Below, one piece after another: positions 1 through 18,244 of a stretch of 18,959 nt of DNA (position 1 is its first letter; each line of letters starts with the position of its first letter). The translations under genes and the position numbers were made by a program. The notes below the pieces were generated by a model that did not search any database, had not been told where the DNA came from, and was given only the letters and a program-made list of their open reading frames with translations. Source of the DNA: Minisyncoccota bacterium (lineage in GTDB: Bacteria; Patescibacteriota; Minisyncoccia; Phycocordibacterales; DATDSR01); contig DATDSR010000026.1 of NCBI GenBank assembly GCA_036517855.1, positions 1-18,959 of the forward strand, written 5' to 3'.

Positions 1-139
1 ATACAGCAAAGGCCTTGGGGATGGCGGGCGGGGTGGGCGGTACTCCGCACACAGGCGGAGACGCACCGATTTAGTAGCAGGGTTTAATCACAGCGGTGTC
101 GTCTCGAAGTAAGTTCGAGCCGACTCGTAGATACTCCAC
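1..139 (+). repeat. Copy A of a GC-rich repeat family of about 180 bp (cut by the window start)
   Basis: By manual alignment, 1-139 matches 16761-16900 at 137 of 140 positions (2 substitutions, one 1-nt indel) in the same orientation. It contains the hairpin GTCG-T-CTCGAA-gtaag-TTCGAG-C-CGAC at 98-124. Confidence 0.9.
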
Positions 140-185
140 AAAAGACACGACAACCTGCCCTGCGGCAGGTTTTGTGCTTTTGTGG
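136..185 (+). terminator. Compound hairpin with T-tract (candidate intrinsic terminator, plus strand favoured)
   Basis: The inner stem AACCTGCC-ctgc-GGCAGGTT (152-171) is followed by TTTGTGCTTTTGT. The outer stem CCACAAAAG(A)CAC (136-148) pairs with GTGCTTTTGTGG (174-185). Because the T-tract also takes part in the outer stem, the function is uncertain. Confidence 0.4.
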
Positions 186-9614: not shown

Positions 9615-9642
9615 AAGATAGCAAGTATTTGACAAAAGTCAA
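9615..9642 (-). promoter_or_regulatory. Promoter of the 43-aa ORF, with the -35 embedded in a TTGAC-N4-GTCAA palindrome
   Basis: On the minus strand: -35 TTGACT (9637-9642), 16-nt spacer, -10 TATCTT (9615-9620). The palindrome TTGACaaaaGTCAA spans 9629-9642. Confidence 0.5.
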
Positions 9643-9683
9643 GGGGCATTATTTCGGATTGCCTGTCAACCAAATATAATCCG

Positions 9684-9705: not shown

Positions 9706-9776
9706 CGGAATGTAGTATAGTGGTAATATACGCCCTTCGGGAGGGCGAGCCCCGAGTTCGATTCTCGGCATTCCGA
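9706..9776 (+). tRNA. tRNA-Pro (anticodon CGG)
   Basis: Manual cloverleaf: acceptor CGGAATG/CATTCCG (C1-G72, typical of bacterial tRNA-Pro), anticodon arm CGCCC-TTCGGGA-GGGCG, T arm CCGAG-TTCGATT-CTCGG, discriminator A. Confidence 0.85.
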
Positions 9777-9777
9777 C

Positions 9778-9850
9778 GGGCCCGTAGCTCATCTGGTAGA
9801 GCGCGTCATTCGCATTGACGAGGTAAGGAGTTCGACTCTCCTCGGGTCCA
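9778..9850 (+). tRNA. tRNA-Ala (anticodon CGC)
   Basis: Acceptor GGGCCCG/CGGGTCC containing the G3:U70 alanine identity pair, D arm GCTC-ATCTGGTA-GAGC, anticodon arm CGTCA-TTCGCAT-TGACG, T arm AGGAG-TTCGACT-CTCCT. It starts 1 nt after tRNA-Pro and CCA is not encoded. Confidence 0.9.
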
Positions 9851-11705: not shown

Positions 11706-11709
11706 TTTT

Positions 11710-11889
11710 GTGGTGTTATCTTAACATTTGCGCGAACCCATTTCGAGAGCCAAAGTTGATGAGTGGCTAAATTAAAATGGTGCGTCCCCGCCTGTGGTCG
11801 GTGAGTACACCGCCCACCCCGCACGCCATCCCCAAGGGCCTCTACATTTTTGTATTTTTCGCGCGCGACTTCGGGGTTCGCAATATGGA
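11710..11889 (-). repeat. Copy B of the repeat family, inverted relative to copies A and C
   Basis: The reverse complement aligns with 16721-16900. The inner part (11771-11889 vs 16721-16836) is roughly 85% identical by manual alignment. The outer ~65 nt are diverged but of similar length, with an equivalent hairpin (TTTG-CGCGAA-cccat-TTCGAG-agc-CAAA, 11727-11754). It begins 5 nt after the ABC exporter stop. Confidence 0.85.
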
Positions 11890-11900
11890 AGCATCCTTAG

Positions 11901-11969
11901 TGGGTGGGAGAGCAGTCCCGCAAAATCCTCCAGCCCCAACTAACAGCTTTGCGGGACTGCTGGGTGGGA
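11901..11969. repeat. Miniature inverted-repeat unit flanked by a 9-bp direct repeat
   Basis: The direct repeat TGGGTGGGA occurs at 11901-11909 and 11961-11969. A perfect 13-bp inverted repeat, GCAGTCCCGCAAA (11912-11924) / TTTGCGGGACTGC (11948-11960), encloses a 23-nt loop. Confidence 0.8.
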
Positions 11970-11995
11970 TAAATAGATATTTCCATACTTCTCAC

Positions 11996-12023
11996 TTGAT
12001 TATATTCCTATTTGGAATATAAC
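11996..12023 (+). promoter_or_regulatory. Promoter with a C-box-like palindromic operator upstream of the controller gene
   Basis: -35 TTGATT (11996-12001), 16-nt spacer, -10 TATAAC (12018-12023). The palindrome ATATTCC-tattt-GGAATAT (12002-12020) fills the spacer. A further GGAATA half-site is at 12029-12034. Confidence 0.45.
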
Positions 12024-12051
12024 ACAATGGAATACTATACTAAAATTGTTA

Positions 12052-12273
12052 ATGACTAAAGCTATATTCTCAAAGGATCATAGGCACATTGTGGAACGGC
12101 TCAAGAAAGCCCGCATTGAGGCTGGTCTAGATCAAATTGCAGTGGCTAAGCGGCTCAAGAAGACCCAGTCGCATGTTTCCAAGATTGAAGCCGGGCAAAG
12201 AAATATAGATGTCGTCGAGCTAAAACAACTTGCTAGGATTTACAATAAATCAATGGACTATTTTCTGGAATAA
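12052..12273 (+). CDS. XRE-family helix-turn-helix protein, probable RM controller (C) protein
   Basis: 73 aa from the ATG at 12052. The HTH region is LDQIAVAKRLKKTQSHVSKIEAGQRNIDVVELKQLARIY. It lies 3 nt upstream of, and on the same strand as, the putative endonuclease gene. Confidence 0.8.
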   Translation: MTKAIFSKDHRHIVERLKKARIEAGLDQIAVAKRLKKTQSHVSKIEAGQRNIDVVELKQLARIYNKSMDYFLE

Positions 12274-12276
12274 ATT

Positions 12277-13305
12277 ATGTACGCAGATACGGCATTAAAA
12301 AAATATCACAAATACTTCGCACCATTCTTGACCCCGTCTCAAACTAAGAGATTGTTCACAAGGCTGGAGAGAGTTTCTTGCAACATAGCTCCAATAAATC
12401 CCGCCACAGGAAATACGCAAACGAGCGTAAGATGGAAGCTTGATAAGGCGAACCCAAACTACGCAAGTGAAAAAGAATGTCGAGAAATATTTACCGCTCT
12501 CGTTGAGGATCTGTTGGGTTTCTTGGGTGTAAAGAAATTTAAAGCTCGTGGTTATTTACAGACCTACTCGGATAAAAATATCGCGAAAGAGGACGTATCT
12601 AGTTTCTTAAATACTAGCTCTAGAATAGGTTCTCTCGAACTACCTATAGACTACAAAAGGCCACTTAGGGAAGATGGCAAGCACACAAAAGATAATATTT
12701 ACTGGTTTTCGCCTTTTACCAAGATAGTTAATTTAAGAAATTGGGTCGGAAATGAAAATATTGTTACCAAGATACAAGTAAAATCATATCTGACCGACAG
12801 AAGGCAAACAGGCGACTACCAGACAAATCGAGAGATTCGCTGGGAAACACATCCAAAGTCTCCTCAGTACGCTTCGAGAGGAGACTGCATGCTCATTGAA
12901 GCTAAACTATTAGCTCAAATATCCATTTTTGTTGGGGCACCTGACCTACCCGTGGATTTAATCGAAGTTGTAGAGGAAGTATTGGGCAGTAAATTTGTAA
13001 AAGATAGTTTCAAATGTCCCATATCCGGGAAACCAATTTTCTTTAACGAATTTTATGAAAAGGTAGCGAGCCCGGTGCATGGAAGATCAGGTTTCCAAGT
13101 CGGACATTTAAATCCGCTCGCATCTACAGGTCGTCATATTGCATCAAATACATCATGGATAACTGACCTAGGGAATCGTGTTCAAGGAGAATCTTCTCTA
13201 GAGCAAATCACAAATGATATTTTCTTCATGGCCAACTTCCACAAAGAGCGTCAGTCTCTAGATTGGAGTGAAGTTGAATCTATTGCAAAGAAAACACAGA
13301 GTTAA
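12277..13305 (+). CDS. Putative restriction endonuclease (C-terminal HNH / beta-beta-alpha-Me-like motif)
   Basis: 342 aa and low GC. It sits directly downstream of the C gene and is convergent with the methyltransferase. The C-terminal motif is FQVGHLNPLASTGRHIASNTSWITDLGNRVQG (spacing of the H...N...N type). I recognise no closer family. Confidence 0.55.
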   Translation: MYADTALKKYHKYFAPFLTPSQTKRLFTRLERVSCNIAPINPATGNTQTSVRWKLDKANPNYASEKECREIFTALVEDLLGFLGVKKFKARGYLQTYSDKNIAKEDVSSFLNTSSRIGSLELPIDYKRPLREDGKHTKDNIYWFSPFTKIVNLRNWVGNENIVTKIQVKSYLTDRRQTGDYQTNREIRWETHPKSPQYASRGDCMLIEAKLLAQISIFVGAPDLPVDLIEVVEEVLGSKFVKDSFKCPISGKPIFFNEFYEKVASPVHGRSGFQVGHLNPLASTGRHIASNTSWITDLGNRVQGESSLEQITNDIFFMANFHKERQSLDWSEVESIAKKTQS

Positions 13306-15409
13306 GTTTATTGACCATTGCAAAAGTGTGTTCTTTTGTCTTTTCCTTTAGAGTAATGATATCTTTTACTTCTTGGTCAATGTCACTAAGGGTTTGAAGA
13401 TTTCGTGGAGTCGGAATTAAGAGGTCATAAATCCTTTTGCCAAGCGAATCTATGATGTCCTGCGTCAGTTGTTTAGACTTAATTTGTCTCTGTACCCATC
13501 GAGATGAAAGAAGTCCTAGTAGGTTATAGGCCGTTAGACCTATTTCGTTAGAAAGCACTCTAATTTTATAAATATGACTCTGATAAATAATCTCAGTATC
13601 AAATTTGGTAATCATTGCAAGCGTTCCAATCAAGTATGTGCCGTCCTTAACCATAAGAATATCACCGGCTTGAATATCCTGTTTGTTTTTTAGCTTCTCG
13701 TAGATCGACCGCTCAACTCTATGCTTTGCATCATTCTTAACCTCCCAATTCGTTAAGTCAGAAGTTCTTATATAAGGTATATCTCCTGTACCATATGCCA
13801 GTTTTCCAATCTCGTCTCCCGTAGAAATCTCCAAAATATTCCTTTCGACAAGCTCCCGAATAGTAACCAAGTGTGAATCAACCGAAAGACTATTTTTATC
13901 ATTTTCTAAATCTGCGTCATAATACTTTGGAGCCAAAATATTATCATCAACACGATCTGCTAGTAGCATGTAGCCTAAATTGCTGCTCTCGGTGTAGGTT
14001 TTATTCCTGAATTTCAGATAATTACTCAAAATTCCAGGAAGGTCATCGTGGGGAATTATGTTTCCCCTAGAATCATGTCCGCACCACTTGGCCTCCGCAA
14101 AAAATATCGACCTTTCAACTGTATCACTACCATCCCTTCTTCTAACAATCATGAGATCCGTCTTTGTATGCGTGCCGCCCTTCCCTGAAATTTTAAAAAG
14201 TGACTCAGGCATGCCAATCACACACTCAACATCGGAATTATTAAGAATATATTGGACTGTACCTTTGTAATTCTTATTCGATAAAAGACTTTCTGGCACA
14301 ACAGTTGCAAGTAGACCTCCATTTTTAAGTGCTCGGATATTTCTTTCCATAAAAATTGCCTGTGGGGGCGTGTTGACGTTTAGGGTATCGGTCTTCTTAT
14401 ATGAACCATTATTACCAGACCATTTGTAGCTTACGGTGTATTGCTTGGCAGTTTCTTCGTCGATTGATTTTATCTTTGATCCAAATGGGGGGTTGGTTAT
14501 TACGAGATCGAAATATCCATCTTTTATTTTTGGCAAGTCTGGGTTACCTACCAAAAGTGAATCGCCATCATAAATATGCGCTACTTCACCGGTAAGCAAC
14601 GTTAAATGGATCTTCGCAAGTCTGGCTAGTTTTTTATCTTTTTCAATGCCAAACATATTATTCTTTACGAAGGATTGGACGTCCTTCTCTGGGTAGCGCT
14701 CCTTAAGGTACAGGTAGGTAGCCGTTAGGAAACTACAGGCACCACACGCAGTGTCTATAATTTTCCATGTGGGTTTTGGATCAACTGCTCTAACCAAAAA
14801 ATCTACTGCAACCTTCGGTGTGAAAAATTGGCCTTCTTGGCCTCTTATGTGATTACCAATGAACACTTGGTATAAAGACGCTACTACGTCTATGTTGTGT
14901 TTTTGGAATTCTCGTAGTTGACGGAGTCCTTGGGCTACGTAGTCTATCGAATGAGGATCTAGAAGTAGCTCCTCATCAGGACCATAAAAATCAGGAAACT
15001 TTGATCTGATTTTTGTAAATTCAGCTCTAAATACCTTAGAATTTTCAAATATGTCTTCAGAAATGCGTTTTTCGACAGTATCACTCAAGCAAAAGAAAAC
15101 TTTAAGAACCTCTTCGAGCAAGGCCTCATCTCGACTCATCCCCACCGCTCTTCCCGCAAGATAATTACGAATATTCCTAATGATAGCGGAAGGTTCGAGG
15201 GATAATTGTAAGTTTGCTTTTTGGTCTTTCATTTCCTGTTGAGCGGGAATCATCCCACAGTTTATGTAATTATAGTACATTTTGCTGAGTGAGGAACAGC
15301 GATTATCCACAGGGTTGACGTAATATCTAGCTAAACTACGTAAAAATATGATCGGCCTTTTAATGTCAGTATTTAAAAACAGAAAAGCCCCCACAGATGT
15401 AGAGTCCAT
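13280..15409 (-). CDS. N6-adenine DNA methyltransferase (gamma class, HsdM-like) fused to a C-terminal HsdS-type target-recognition domain
   Basis: Up to 709 aa. It has FFTPKVAVDFLV, motif I IIDTACGACSFL and motif IV DLVITNPPFG. The C-terminal ~200 aa resemble a type I S-subunit TRD (GDIPYIRTSDL...GDILMVKDGTYLIG...SHIYKIRV). The start is uncertain: ATGs at 15409, 15280, 15253 and 15232 are all possible, and the 15409 ATG sits inside a hairpin. The 3' end overlaps the R gene by 26 bp. Confidence 0.9.
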   Translation of the reverse strand: MDSTSVGAFLFLNTDIKRPIIFLRSLARYYVNPVDNRCSSLSKMYYNYINCGMIPAQQEMKDQKANLQLSLEPSAIIRNIRNYLAGRAVGMSRDEALLEEVLKVFFCLSDTVEKRISEDIFENSKVFRAEFTKIRSKFPDFYGPDEELLLDPHSIDYVAQGLRQLREFQKHNIDVVASLYQVFIGNHIRGQEGQFFTPKVAVDFLVRAVDPKPTWKIIDTACGACSFLTATYLYLKERYPEKDVQSFVKNNMFGIEKDKKLARLAKIHLTLLTGEVAHIYDGDSLLVGNPDLPKIKDGYFDLVITNPPFGSKIKSIDEETAKQYTVSYKWSGNNGSYKKTDTLNVNTPPQAIFMERNIRALKNGGLLATVVPESLLSNKNYKGTVQYILNNSDVECVIGMPESLFKISGKGGTHTKTDLMIVRRRDGSDTVERSIFFAEAKWCGHDSRGNIIPHDDLPGILSNYLKFRNKTYTESSNLGYMLLADRVDDNILAPKYYDADLENDKNSLSVDSHLVTIRELVERNILEISTGDEIGKLAYGTGDIPYIRTSDLTNWEVKNDAKHRVERSIYEKLKNKQDIQAGDILMVKDGTYLIGTLAMITKFDTEIIYQSHIYKIRVLSNEIGLTAYNLLGLLSSRWVQRQIKSKQLTQDIIDSLGKRIYDLLIPTPRNLQTLSDIDQEVKDIITLKEKTKEHTFAMVNKLNSVFSLQ

Positions 15410-15423
15410 ACGGACTTTTCTGT
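15379..15423 (-). terminator. Possible terminator of the high-GC gene
   Basis: On the minus strand: ACAGAAAAG, a 27-nt loop (with the inner hairpin AGTCC-gtat-GGACT), then CTTTTCTGT followed by TTTTAAAT. It lies 36 nt after the stop at 15459. Confidence 0.3.
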
Positions 15424-15458
15424 GAGGGCCGAAGAACTTATCGGACCTCTGGCTAAAG

Positions 15459-16232
15459 CTAGTTGACCTTCCTGACCGCCCGCCAGTCCACGAGGACGCC
15501 GAACGGGAAGCCGGCCTTGATGCTCATGCTTGGGAAGTTGGGCCCAGTATCGCCCTCGTCCTTCAAGCGCTGGACCGAGACCAGATGGAACTTGTGGCAA
15601 CTCATACCGACGACGAGCTTCCACCTACCCGGCTCCAGAATGTTCGCACCTTCGGGGTAGCAGTCGGTGACGGTCTCGGTGACCTCCACGATGCTGCCGT
15701 TGGGTGGAGCGAAGACATCGCACTCAGTGTTCCCGCAGGTTTGGACGGAGCCGAACTCTCGCTCGATGTGTTGCCTGGCCTCGTCCTTGTCCGCGGTGGC
15801 GTAGATCGGAAGACACGTCTCGGGGCCAGCTGCGCTTGGCAGACTACCACGACCCCCGGAAGTGGAGATAGCGGGCCGGCCGTCGAGGTGGAATTCGAAG
15901 TCGAAGTGGCGGAAGTATTCCTTCTCTCCACTCTGGTAGCCCCTGACCTCGAGGCTCAAACCCGGTCCACCGCGAAGCGTGATGCAGGCTTCGACACGGT
16001 TAGCGTCGCGGAAGAGCTCTCTGACCGACACGCTCTCCTCGTGACAACCGCAGGTGTACTTGCCGAAATCGCTGTAGCAATCGCTGGAAACCCTGCCGCC
16101 CATGCGGTCGGTTCCGAACATCACGAGTTCTCCGAAGAGTCTGAGAGCGGCACGATGCGCCACTGAGTACGTCCTGTTCTCGGCCAGTCGGGATCGAAGA
16201 GTCTTGTCGAGGAACAAACTGATCTTCTTCAT
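15459..16232 (-). CDS. Orphan Cys-rich cytoplasmic protein, high-GC (probable horizontal acquisition)
   Basis: 257 aa from the ATG at 16232, preceded by the SD AAAAGGAG (16241-16248). Third codon positions are strongly G/C-biased, and the local GC is about 60% against about 37% for the adjacent RM genes. It has 10 Cys (CGCH, CGNTEC and others) and no signal peptide or TM helix. I recognise no family. Confidence 0.7.
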   Translation of the reverse strand: MKKISLFLDKTLRSRLAENRTYSVAHRAALRLFGELVMFGTDRMGGRVSSDCYSDFGKYTCGCHEESVSVRELFRDANRVEACITLRGGPGLSLEVRGYQSGEKEYFRHFDFEFHLDGRPAISTSGGRGSLPSAAGPETCLPIYATADKDEARQHIEREFGSVQTCGNTECDVFAPPNGSIVEVTETVTDCYPEGANILEPGRWKLVVGMSCHKFHLVSVQRLKDEGDTGPNFPSMSIKAGFPFGVLVDWRAVRKVN

Positions 16233-16329
16233 CGCGTTTTCTCCTTTTTGAGTGGGCACGCTAGAGCCCAAGCAGAGAGGACAAACTCCGACGAAACGTC
16301 GGTCTATCTGTGACCCCTCATCTTTCGGA

Positions 16330-16358
16330 AGCATATCAAATCCCTTGACGAAAGTCAA
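16330..16358 (-). promoter_or_regulatory. Sigma70-like promoter of the high-GC gene, with the -35 inside a TTGAC-N4-GTCAA palindrome
   Basis: On the minus strand: -35 TTGACT (16353-16358), 17-nt spacer, -10 TATGCT (16330-16335). The palindrome CCTTGACgaaaGTCAAGG spans 16343-16360. The predicted leader is about 95 nt and contains the hairpin CCGACG-ttt-CGTCGG. Confidence 0.5.
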
Positions 16359-16392
16359 GGTGCAGTGTCCAGTACAAATGGGGAATGAGTTC

Positions 16393-16825
16393 GGGGAGCC
16401 GTGCCCGCCAAGGGCGGGCACCCCCTGTGCGCGCACGGGAGGGCGGGGCAAGCACAGTTAGATAGAGCCAGCCCTTCCCACCAAGGAGGGGTTTGGGGAG
16501 GAATTGGGGGGAAGGGCTGATCCATACTTCTCCCGTTCCCCCAGTCACGCCATTCATTGGCGTGACTGAATAATAGCGCGTCTCCGCCTCACTCTCCGAA
16601 TGCGCCAGAGCAGCAAACCGGTCGGGCATACAAATAACCACAACATTTTGATATAGTAAGAGGACGGCTTGCTGTGAGGGCGCATTCGGGGAGTCTCGCA
16701 TCGCCATCACTCAAGGCCTATCCATATTGCGAACCCCGAAGTCGCGCGCGCAAAAAACAAATACAGCAAAGGCCTTGGGGGATGGCGTGCGGGGTGGGCG
16801 GTACTCCGCACACAGGCGGAGACGC
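16393..16825. other. Hairpin-dense non-coding region with nested long-range helices (candidate structured RNA or nested palindromic elements)
   Basis: Local hairpins are at 16401-16421 (9 bp), 16424-16439, 16469-16519 (11+4 bp) and 16542-16568 (11 bp). The nested helices are: H1 16578-16589/16814-16825 (12 bp); H2 16591-16606/16679-16694 (16 bp, one T.G); H2b 16611-16623/16663-16674; H3 16698-16708/16781-16790; H4 16710-16718/16771-16779. Confidence 0.4.
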
Positions 16826-16900
16826 ACCGATTTAATAGCAGGGTTTAATCACAGCGGTGTCGTCTCGAAGTAAGTTCGAGCCGACTCGTAGATACTCCAC
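16721..16900 (+). repeat. Copy C of the repeat family, directly abutting the murA start
   Basis: 16761-16900 is about 98% identical to 1-139. 16721-16900 is the inverted partner of 11710-11889. It ends 12 nt before the murA ATG. The terminal TCCAC (16896-16900) can pair with GTGGA (16909-16913), which includes the A of the start codon. Confidence 0.9.
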
Positions 16901-16912
16901 TAACAAAAGTGG

Positions 16913-18244
16913 ATGTCAACATTTATCGTTAACGGCGGGGAAAAATTAGGTGGTGTTTATGAAGTTTCTGGGGCTAAGAATGCTGGTCCCAAACTTATCA
17001 TTGCCGCCATGCTTAGCGACAAGGAGTGTTTACTGCGCAATATTCCCAGAATTTCTGACACAGAGAAAATTATGTCGGCCATCCGACAGATGGGCGGAGA
17101 GTGCTCGTGGAGCGGTGACCATGAGGTTAAAGTTAACTGCGCTAATCTCAAGGACCCGCACGTGCCCGATGTTGTGTTAACGGCGAGGCACGCAGTGCTC
17201 TTCATCGGTGCAACGCTGGCGCGATTAGGCAAACTGCGGATAGAGAAGATTGGTGGCGACAAAATCGGCAAGCGGCCAATCGATCGTCTGCTCGGAGGTC
17301 TTGAGAGTCTTGGAGCCCAGGTCATTGAGAAGAATGGCGTCCTAGAAATGAGCATGCCAGAGCGGCTAGCCTCGCGCGATTACACCTTCGCCAAGAACAC
17401 TCACACAGGCACGGAGTCGCTTATACTCGGGTCAATTTTTAATTCAGGAATAGTGACAATCAGGAATGCCGCAGAAGAACCCGAAGTAGATAACCTCATA
17501 GAGTTCACAAATGCCATGGGTGCGAAAGTTCGACGCATCGACCCAAGAGTGATTGAAATTACGGGAGTGCCAAAATTACTGGGCGCAGCAACTGGCAAAT
17601 CTATGTATGATAGACTCGAGGCCGCCACAGCGCTTGCCCTAAATGTGATGAATGGTGGGGGAATCGAGGTACGGAATGTAGATCCCAAAATGGTGAAATT
17701 TTTCACCGACGCACTCGAGCAAATAGGCGCATCAGAACCCAGTACCAAGTACCTGGTACCTGTTACCTTGAAGACTGCTGTTCATCCAGGTTTCATCACG
17801 GACCTTCAACCGATCATGAGTTTGCTCTTGGCGTACAAGGGGGGTGGCAGATCGGAAATACACGAGATGATCTACGAGCAACGTTGGAGTGCTCTACAGG
17901 AGCTCGCCAAGATGGGGGTGAAGTATGAACTCTTCCAGCCCGCGGGCTACACAGCCAACGACTTCAACTTCAACGAGCGTGAGTTCCACAAGAACGACCC
18001 ATACGGAGCATACGTTTGGGGGCCAACTGAACTAAGGGCGGCAGAAGTGGAGTCGCGAGACGTGAGAGCGGGTATCACAGTCCTAATTGCGGCACTCTTT
18101 GCCCAGGGCGAGAGCAAAATCAACGACCCAGACAATCACATAGACAGAGGCTACGAAGATATAGTCGGCAAGCTCCAGCGCCTAGGCGCTGACATCAGGA
18201 GAATTGATTCCCCACTTCGCCAAGGCTACGCGGGGCAGGCATGA
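16913..18244 (+). CDS. murA: UDP-N-acetylglucosamine 1-carboxyvinyltransferase (MurA), Asp variant at the fosfomycin-target position
   Basis: 443 aa. The N-terminus FIVNGGEKLGGVYEVSGAKNA matches the MurA start. The active-site loop is KIGGDKIGKRPID (E. coli: PGGCTIGARPVD). HIDRGYEDIVGKLQRLGADI lies at the C-terminus. Confidence 0.93.
   Translation: MSTFIVNGGEKLGGVYEVSGAKNAGPKLIIAAMLSDKECLLRNIPRISDTEKIMSAIRQMGGECSWSGDHEVKVNCANLKDPHVPDVVLTARHAVLFIGATLARLGKLRIEKIGGDKIGKRPIDRLLGGLESLGAQVIEKNGVLEMSMPERLASRDYTFAKNTHTGTESLILGSIFNSGIVTIRNAAEEPEVDNLIEFTNAMGAKVRRIDPRVIEITGVPKLLGAATGKSMYDRLEAATALALNVMNGGGIEVRNVDPKMVKFFTDALEQIGASEPSTKYLVPVTLKTAVHPGFITDLQPIMSLLLAYKGGGRSEIHEMIYEQRWSALQELAKMGVKYELFQPAGYTANDFNFNEREFHKNDPYGAYVWGPTELRAAEVESRDVRAGITVLIAALFAQGESKINDPDNHIDRGYEDIVGKLQRLGADIRRIDSPLRQGYAGQA

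Follow-up and report, generated by a model that had tools for sequence, protein, structure and literature searches.

In the 18,959-nt stretch of DNA analysed here (the window), positions 16393–16903 form a structured non-coding element, and the 3′ third of this element is the inverted boundary repeat of a genomic island. With moderate confidence, we assign it, as cargo-distal junction block, to a small cassette island whose family is linked to a single clade of large serine recombinases (LSRs) and spread through CPR/Patescibacteria. This interpretation builds on the anatomy and boundaries of the element, its distribution and covariation, the inverted arms, the type of cargo and the recombinase found at arm and tRNA ends. 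The argument draws on the following features of the window:

1–142, plus strand: 3′ end of a further copy of the element at the contig start, 97% identical to the corresponding part of 16721–16903.
11707–11889, minus strand: left boundary arm, an inverted partial copy of 16721–16903 (75% identity).
12046–12273, plus strand: cargo gene for an XRE-type regulator.
12277–13305, plus strand: cargo gene for a putative restriction endonuclease (weak DraIII match).
13280–15409, minus strand: cargo gene for an N6 DNA methyltransferase.
15459–16232, minus strand: cargo gene for a 257-aa protein without assigned function.
16393–16903, plus strand: full structured non-coding element (putative junction block plus boundary arm), 511 nt.
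16394–16455, plus strand: 5′ module, consisting of GGGAGC (16394–16399), hairpin P1 (16401–16409 with 16413–16421) and an invariant G-rich box (16427–16455).
16469–16568, plus strand: variable 5′ domain of the computed minimum free energy (MFE) fold, with a G-tract-rich 15-bp hairpin (16469–16519) and an 11-bp hairpin (16542–16568).
16578–16825, plus strand: multibranch domain of the MFE fold, with a 12-bp closing helix (16578–16589 with 16814–16825) and three arms.
16591–16694, plus strand: arm I of the MFE fold, with an AT-rich loop.
16649–16657, plus strand: TGATATAGT, read from the sequence as an extended −10-like motif in the arm I loop, directed towards murA and a putative promoter.
16698–16790, plus strand: arm II of the MFE fold.
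16721–16903, plus strand: right boundary arm (repeat C), comprising the 3′ half of arm II, arm III, the closing helix's 3′ strand and a tail whose last bases are ...CTCCAC.
About 16791–16812, plus strand: arm III of the MFE fold.
16913–18244, plus strand: murA (EPSP_synthase fold family), a neighbour outside the element, whose ATG lies 9 nt past the element end.

The element is held in a gap of 680 nt between the start of a minus-strand gene (16232) on one side and the start of murA (16913) on the other. At its left boundary (16392/16393), both copies in the same-genus genome G001 begin to match exactly, while the right boundary (16903) is common to the copies at window positions 1–142 and at positions 1–139 of C8, another contig of the window's own genome (G000), which starts with the 3′ part of the element (98% identity to the corresponding part of 16721–16903). 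Since the copies share these edges, the unit is 16393–16903. The initial annotation had delimited an interval of 16393–16825, which corresponds to the first 433 nt of this unit; its left edge is a true boundary and its right edge falls short of the true end at 16903. Positions 1–141 of the window and of C8 are 100% identical, that is, two contigs of one genome have an identical 141-nt end. The whole stretch occurs twice in genome G001, at 89% and 86% identity and in each case at a contig end, and a third copy there, a paralogue on contig C4, has 53% identity. The flanking housekeeping DNA of G000 and G001 is about 70% identical, versus 89% for the better conserved G001 copy, which sits at a different chromosomal place with different cargo. 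These differences argue that the element moves.

The repeat that ends the element recurs, inverted, on the other side of the cargo. Inverted copies of the element's 3′ part were found 1.2–7 kb upstream in about 38 of 134 loci, with 85–100% and often 99–100% identity, and several contigs start and end inside such arms. In the window, the bracket spans 11707–16903, with the outer end of its left arm 1 nt past the stop codon of an ABC transporter gene, and the two arms flank a restriction-modification set (12046–16232). Cargo in family loci included ImmA/IrrE with DUF4411 or PIN, HEPN proteins (AbiU2, Swt1), DUF3800, DNA methylases and AAA_13, and that of G001 comprised Shedu, an MvaI-type restriction-modification pair and Mrr; such defence or toxin cargo differs even between genomes of the same genus. 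The window copy is probably an old, immobilised island, since its arms are just 75% identical, neither an LSR gene nor a tRNA lies at its ends and its last cargo gene faces away.

The link to a recombinase was seen elsewhere in the family. One cluster of homologous LSRs (Resolvase, Recombinase and zinc ribbon) is encoded upstream on the opposite strand at about 22 loci. The only LSR gene of the window's genome lies on C8 (282–1985) and starts 140 nt after the 3′ end of the element, in the arrangement arm (1–139), LSR gene (282–1985) and tRNA-Ala (1832–1905). It is flanked by 31-bp perfect inverted repeats (140–170 and 1801–1831), tRNA-Ala(GGC) borders it with its 3′ end on the far side, and both junctions fall directly after ...TCCAC in mirror orientation. 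For this recombinase, the best NCBIfam matches were XisF and CcrB, far under the cut-offs. The joint between arm end and recombinase unit was also present at two further loci, L048 and L085, and in L085 the unit has perfect repeats of 107 bp and its far end adjoins a tRNA; the perfect inverted repeats around recombinase genes thereby measure 31–107 bp. Adjacency of LSR gene and tRNA is absent at the window's own bracket and present at C8, L048 and L085.

Several other origins were considered for the element and its tail. A MITE or IS-derived repeat was rejected, as the ends GGGAGC... and ...CTCCAC are not mutual inverted repeats and each genome holds 1–3 copies. No target-site duplication was detected at the flanks of the complete bracket in L048. 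A tail derived from a tRNA 3′ end was also rejected: GTTCGA and the terminal TCCAC occur both in the window tail and in tRNA-Ala, but the local alignment score was 7, compared with 6.0 ± 1.2 for shuffles.

We then turn to the fold. According to ViennaRNA, the plus strand of 16393–16825 has an MFE of −226.4 kcal/mol, against −165.3 ± 6.3 kcal/mol for dinucleotide shuffles (z = −9.64; 0 of 100 shuffles matched the native energy), and its reverse complement one of −223.1 kcal/mol (z = −9.31). The initial annotation had drawn ordered, nested helices and judged them unusual for random intergenic DNA, and this control on both strands places the folding beyond chance. Hairpins 16401–16421, 16469–16519 and 16542–16568 are among the local hairpins of the computed fold, and the annotated closing helix, arm I and arm II are all part of it. 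Likewise, the repeat that had been described as structurally integrated with its flank was confirmed at 16721–16903: it starts in the apex of arm II, so that it includes all of arm III together with the 3′ sides of both arm II and the closing helix, whose 5′ partners lie outside. The interval was also correctly described as having no credible ORF. Overlapping ORFs of 124, 69, 56 and 53 aa gave no Pfam match even at E ≤ 1, and we reject decayed coding sequence on the same grounds. Among related copies, the 53%-identical paralogue keeps the hairpin at 16542–16568 but builds it from another sequence, the variable 5′ domain (16469–16568) is missing or different in other subfamilies, and a multibranch architecture like that of the window recurs with other sequences in other CPR families. 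Most family members have such a domain after the 5′ module, its shape being retained as the sequence varies.

Since both strands are equally foldable, the energy indicates dyad symmetry in the DNA rather than an RNA or a particular strand. The nested dyads might be purely a matter of DNA, an explanation that we consider unlikely. They would represent recombination scars or accessory sites, namely partial inverted copies of att arms accumulated over successive rounds of integration or inversion. Such sites might extrude as cruciforms or be bound by the recombinase, and the RNA fold would be a by-product. The equal folding strength of the strands is what such scars would give, and the same holds for the weak strand asymmetry described below, for arms that are long inverted repeats of often near-complete identity, for the contig breaks at arms with the identical end on two contigs of one genome, and for the perfect inverted repeats that bracket recombinase genes. 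Furthermore, the apex of arm II carries either a C-rich version or its reverse complement, depending on the member, and a loop found in both orientations points to a DNA-level flip of the hairpin loop. However, arm I and the local hairpins lie outside the repeated arm and yet covary in the alignable sequences, the closing helix comprises just 8–13 bp, the flanks are not extended inverted copies, and the frequent co-orientation with upstream genes (see below) would not be expected for symmetric scars.

The most conserved part of the family is its 5′ module. The box of about 30 nt, GTGCGCGCAC(N)GGGNGGGNGGGGCAAGCAC (16427–16455 in the window), is invariant in 39 aligned members and nearly unchanged in other families of the order; variable 1-nt spacers separate its invariant G-runs, and it looks single-stranded. 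GGGAG occurs at most 110 nt 5′ of the box in 126 of the 134 loci, and in 105 of these 126 the segment from GGGAG to the box (P1) forms a hairpin of at least 6 bp, built from at least 59 different stems. A search for the pattern of the 5′ module across 401 genomes of the order, from 223 genera, was positive in 39 genomes and 35 genera, at 1–3 copies each, whereas the reversed control gave 0 matches. Among public species-representative genomes, the pattern is present in at least 119 stretches or contigs, nearly all of them CPR-labelled (Paceibacteria, Kaiser-, Nomura-, Yanofsky-, Uhr-, Levy- and Berkelbacteria, WWE3, Peregrinibacteria and Saccharibacteria-labelled MAGs). Few matches carried non-CPR labels, and most of those checked were short contigs or had CPR-like G+C. 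One match lies in a high-G+C contig labelled Rhodobacter.

A homologue search and an Rfam search had been proposed as checks on a structured RNA. Homologues exist across CPR/Patescibacteria, and Rfam returned no family for the element at curated or permissive thresholds: at the gathering thresholds of Rfam 15, the window contains three tRNAs, none in the element, and at E ≤ 10 the best match within 16150–16990 reached 22 bits, compared with cut-offs of 50–72. Related loci also had no match in the element. Known RNA classes were discarded one after another. The element is no housekeeping RNA, as the RNase P RNA and tmRNA of the genome are encoded elsewhere (contig C11, 1095–1534, and contig C53, 11762–12150) and the element occurs in 1–3 copies in only about 10% of the order's genomes; the small-SRP model had no match anywhere in the genome and is therefore uninformative either way. 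A group II intron was considered because the box begins with GTGCG after a hairpin, but there was no Intron_gpII or group-II-D1D4 match at E ≤ 10, and no reverse transcriptase was present among the neighbour genes examined. Phage origin was rejected with 0 pattern matches in the viral contig collection. Full-text literature searches gave no published description of the element or the islands.

Of 76 full-length copies, 43 constitute one alignable group, and 39 of these were aligned. The alignment runs from the invariant box through an optional inserted domain to the closing helix, arms I–III and the tail. The closing helix of the group has 8 bp (GCGCCTCG with CGAGGCGC), arm I retains TGnTAnAAT in its loop, arm II is long, arm III is short and covarying, and the tail has a sharp 3′ end at ...CAATACACACCGC. 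In the window element, the parts follow one another in this order too, but their sequences differ considerably. Pairing and covariation measures were computed by script on the long alignment. Across the 97 pairs of the consensus, 93.1% of cells hold standard pairs, versus 88.2% in shuffles and 39–51% when partners were slid by 1–3 columns. Double changes were observed at 29 pairs (19.5 ± 2.4 in shuffles, 17–24 with partners slid), and the covariation score was 0.191, compared with 0.117 ± 0.004 in shuffles, 0 of 300 of which reach it, and 0.05–0.09 with partners slid. The pair tables of RNAalifold were compatible with the consensus structure. Because the aligned sequences are related, these figures overstate independence, and common descent, or gene conversion from one palindrome arm to the other, can inflate covariation. 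Despite this relatedness, the structure is clearly maintained in the group, and a covariation analysis of the kind that the initial annotation had suggested yielded compensatory changes above the shuffled level.

A conserved secondary structure with compensatory changes, found here among related sequences, is what a structured non-coding RNA should display. Tentatively, the element could be a true large structured RNA of about 350–600 nt, encoded on the plus strand and with its own function in the island, for instance as a cofactor or as a regulator acting on the recombinase or the defence cargo, and not just as a cis terminator or leader. Nested folds with compensatory changes in the alignable members and in the 53%-identical paralogue speak for it, as do the invariant, single-stranded-looking box with its variable 1-nt spacers and a size and ornateness reminiscent of OLE, GOLLD and ROOL. 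The strand was judged from non-canonical pairs and from neighbouring genes. In the consensus fold, the plus strand has 266 G.U and 65 A.C cells and the minus strand 175 and 109, wobble counts that favour the plus strand but come from a biased method; an unbiased count, obtained by folding with G.U forbidden and scoring 1x1 mismatches, gave just 50 G.T versus 31 A.C. The strand asymmetry of the element is weak. Its orientation relative to upstream genes is fixed: at 91 of 108 loci, the gene before the element runs in the same direction and ends at the element's 5′ end, with its stop codon mostly 21–86 nt before the box, at GGGAGC or within P1. The earlier guess of a plus-strand transcript therefore agrees with the orientation of the family and draws little from the mismatches.

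Against an RNA with its own gene stand the flanks. The sequence left of GGGAGC is unrelated between loci, which leaves no conserved promoter upstream, a two-hexamer scan called no plus-strand promoter at 16200–16392, and no own terminator was seen at the element end. The parts of the element argue in the same direction, since the island's inverted DNA repeat makes up a third of the fold, folding is as strong on one strand as on the other and the arm II loop is found in either orientation. Moreover, the minimal member, L020, joins the 5′ module straight to the tail and has no multibranch domain, and in a subtype with the recombinase inside the bracket the recombinase gene's 3′ end, copied in inverted orientation, takes the place of all sequence after the box. 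Of the large structured RNA proposed initially, the non-coding character and the nested fold stand, and this fold is kept in distant relatives through compensatory changes; a free-standing gene is less likely than a junction block.

The position next to murA suggested a cis-regulatory leader or riboswitch of this gene. Only 9 nt separate the element from the murA start codon, and the second murA-like gene of the genome is also located downstream of an element copy. However, a recombinase gene and a tRNA intervene between the element and that second gene, the upstream regions of murA in genomes G002 and G003 have no match to the element, the G001 copies lie at other places, and no Rfam leader was matched. 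The link to murA drawn in the initial annotation does not hold in the family: other members adjoin many unrelated genes and a same-genus copy is found at a different chromosomal place. The distribution of the element already contradicts the leader reading, which we deem highly improbable. What may reach murA is transcription from the arm I loop. TGnTAnAAT occurs at the same position of this loop in most of the 39 aligned members, and the looser TGnTAnnnT has 67 plus-strand matches compared with 28.7 expected from shuffles; the minus strand, with 43, is also somewhat enriched. The two-hexamer promoter scan did not call the motif of arm I. We infer a promoter from the plus-strand enrichment and from the 9-nt distance, which leaves murA no room for a promoter of its own.

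Taken as the cargo-distal junction block of an LSR-linked island, the element would work as follows. The inverted arms would be substrates of the recombinase and permit inversion or exchange of the bracketed cassette. The block itself would be a cis-acting module at the 3′ end of the cargo operon, transcribed with the cargo, whose stacked GC-rich helices may terminate transcription of the cargo or insulate it and protect the transcript's 3′ end, and the −10-like motif in the arm I loop might restart transcription outward, here for murA. Several observations count against this model. The window bracket adjoins neither recombinase nor tRNA, and its arms have diverged to 75% identity. Neither inversion nor exchange of a cassette was seen directly. 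Co-transcription with the cargo cannot hold for the window copy, as its upstream gene lies on the opposite strand, and P1 of the window has no U-tract and is thus not a classical terminator. The promoter is a consensus match only, and a terminator or insulator role gives no reason for the invariance of the box across CPR classes. Alternatively, the 5′ module, with or without the multibranch domain, might be a functional single strand (an RNA or a G-quadruplex strand) that directs or licenses recombinase-mediated exchange of defence cassettes. We regard this as rather improbable; if true, it would provide a nucleic-acid cofactor for a large serine recombinase system, whereas such recombinases are not known to need one.

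The element most resembles junctions of recombinase-built cassette systems, namely SCC, serine-integrase islands and, by analogy, attC sites, and it stands apart from them in its long inverted arms, its size and multibranch fold, and its invariant box. SCC/SCCmec (CcrAB/CcrC) and the serine-integrase islands that target tRNA genes or ssrA are among the closest known systems. They share with the family an LSR, a small island format with swappable restriction-modification or defence cargo, boundary repeats and a location at the 3′ end of a conserved gene or tRNA. In contrast, the boundary repeats described here are long (150–245 bp) and inverted instead of short and direct, cargo and arm are separated by a structured block of 350–600 nt that carries an invariant box, perfect inverted repeats enclose the recombinase gene, and the hosts are CPR. 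Integron attC sites are single hairpins of 57–141 nt that are recombined as folded single strands by the tyrosine recombinase IntI. Like the element, they are recombination-associated, imperfectly palindromic structures that start at the stop codon of a co-oriented cargo gene and keep structure over sequence, with a recombinase gene divergent from the cargo. The block is several-fold larger, multibranched and equipped with an invariant box and an inverted repeat partner, and the neighbouring recombinases are of the serine type with no IntI, so that attC was rejected as an identity.

Hin/Gin/Cin invertases and invertons also have inverted repeats that bracket a segment, a serine recombinase gene just outside or inside, contig breaks at the repeats and, as in phase-variable restriction-modification loci, defence cargo. 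Here, the recombinase is of the large, zinc-ribbon type, repeat length is tenfold greater and inversion was not observed; the different cargo of close relatives points to exchange rather than on/off switching. With BIMEs/REP, Correia, BOX and ERIC elements the family shares a mosaic of hairpin modules with optional inserts, few dispersed copies, promoter- and terminator-like pieces and folding of both strands, but its copy number is very low (1–3 per genome), it has no terminal inverted repeats of its own, it is strictly placed at cassette ends and with one recombinase clade, and it spans a superphylum. OLE, GOLLD, ROOL and HEARO/omega RNAs are similar in their length of several hundred nt, their many conserved helices and a link to mobile elements. 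They differ from the element, for which we found no Rfam match at E ≤ 10 and no sign of its own promoter or terminator, and which combines weak strand asymmetry with a DNA inverted repeat over one third of its length.

CPR/Patescibacteria are ultra-small bacteria with tiny genomes that make up a large, mostly uncultured share of bacterial diversity, and few mobile elements or regulatory RNAs have been recognised in them. Serine recombinases, in turn, are widely used in genome engineering. What had been described as a structured RNA upstream of murA is a member of a superphylum-wide non-coding element at the ends of swappable defence cassettes. Its short diagnostic motif makes it possible to spot such islands in metagenomes, and the box of about 30 nt and the covarying fold are directly testable as terminator or insulator, promoter, RNA, G-quadruplex or protein-binding site. 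The defined boundaries, finally, allow natural cassette exchange by a serine recombinase to be tested.

In the alignment of 39 family members, the apex of arm II (window 16698-16790, one arm of the multibranch domain of the structured non-coding element at 16393-16903) occurs either in a C-rich form or as its G-rich reverse complement, depending on the member, as exemplified by loci L028 and L048. The apex variants thus represent a flip of the hairpin loop that the two stem arms enclose.

G-quadruplex-type tracts were also observed on the plus strand of the element, at window positions 16438-16449 and 16491-16519. The former, GGGAGGGCGGGG, belongs to the invariant box, the family-wide G-rich segment; its G-runs are constant across the family, while the 1-nt spacers vary. 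The latter comprises the four plus-strand G-runs of the hairpin at 16469-16519.

Among the family loci in other CPR genomes, L140 contains a group I intron (L140:4253-4540; Rfam RF00028, 82 bits) about 3 kb from a recombinase island. The box pattern was also matched in a few MAGs with non-CPR labels. The majority of those checked lie on short contigs or have a CPR-like G+C content and are therefore probably mis-binned. One non-CPR-labelled match sits close to the beginning of a long contig with high G+C:

L049, on a contig labelled as a Rhodobacter MAG, 61-64% G+C

Elsewhere in the window, we found a 33-nt repeat in two copies that are 85% identical:

2912-2944, copy 1, antisense in the 5' end of an ATP synthase beta-type gene
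18208-18240, copy 2, in the 3' end of murA

The repeat terminus reads GCGGGGCAAGC in one copy and GCGGGGCAGGC in the other, the latter resembling the 3' portion of the box described above, and similar 15-mers are present on two further contigs of the bin (C13 and C33). A palindrome was likewise detected together with a near copy:

16343-16360, CCTTGACGAAAGTCAAGG, immediately left of the element
9629-9648, near copy, preceding a pair of plus-strand tRNAs (9706-9850)

The former overlaps the promoter predicted for the 257-aa gene on the minus strand, and both may represent a common promoter or operator motif.

The first 141 nt of the window are 100% identical to positions 1-141 of contig C8 from the same bin (G000), and both are contig starts. 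Such a shared start is consistent with the assembly having broken at k = 141 within the repeated arm; the genome's island with the recombinase is therefore incompletely assembled or binned. The bin encodes two MurA-like proteins (75% identity), each downstream of an element 3' end:

window 16913-18244, MurA-like gene 1
C8:2382-3707 (locus L170), MurA-like gene 2

On C8, a serine recombinase gene, a tRNA-Ala and a 128-aa ORF separate the element 3' end from the MurA-like gene. The pair could be true paralogues, or could stem from two related populations mixed in the bin.
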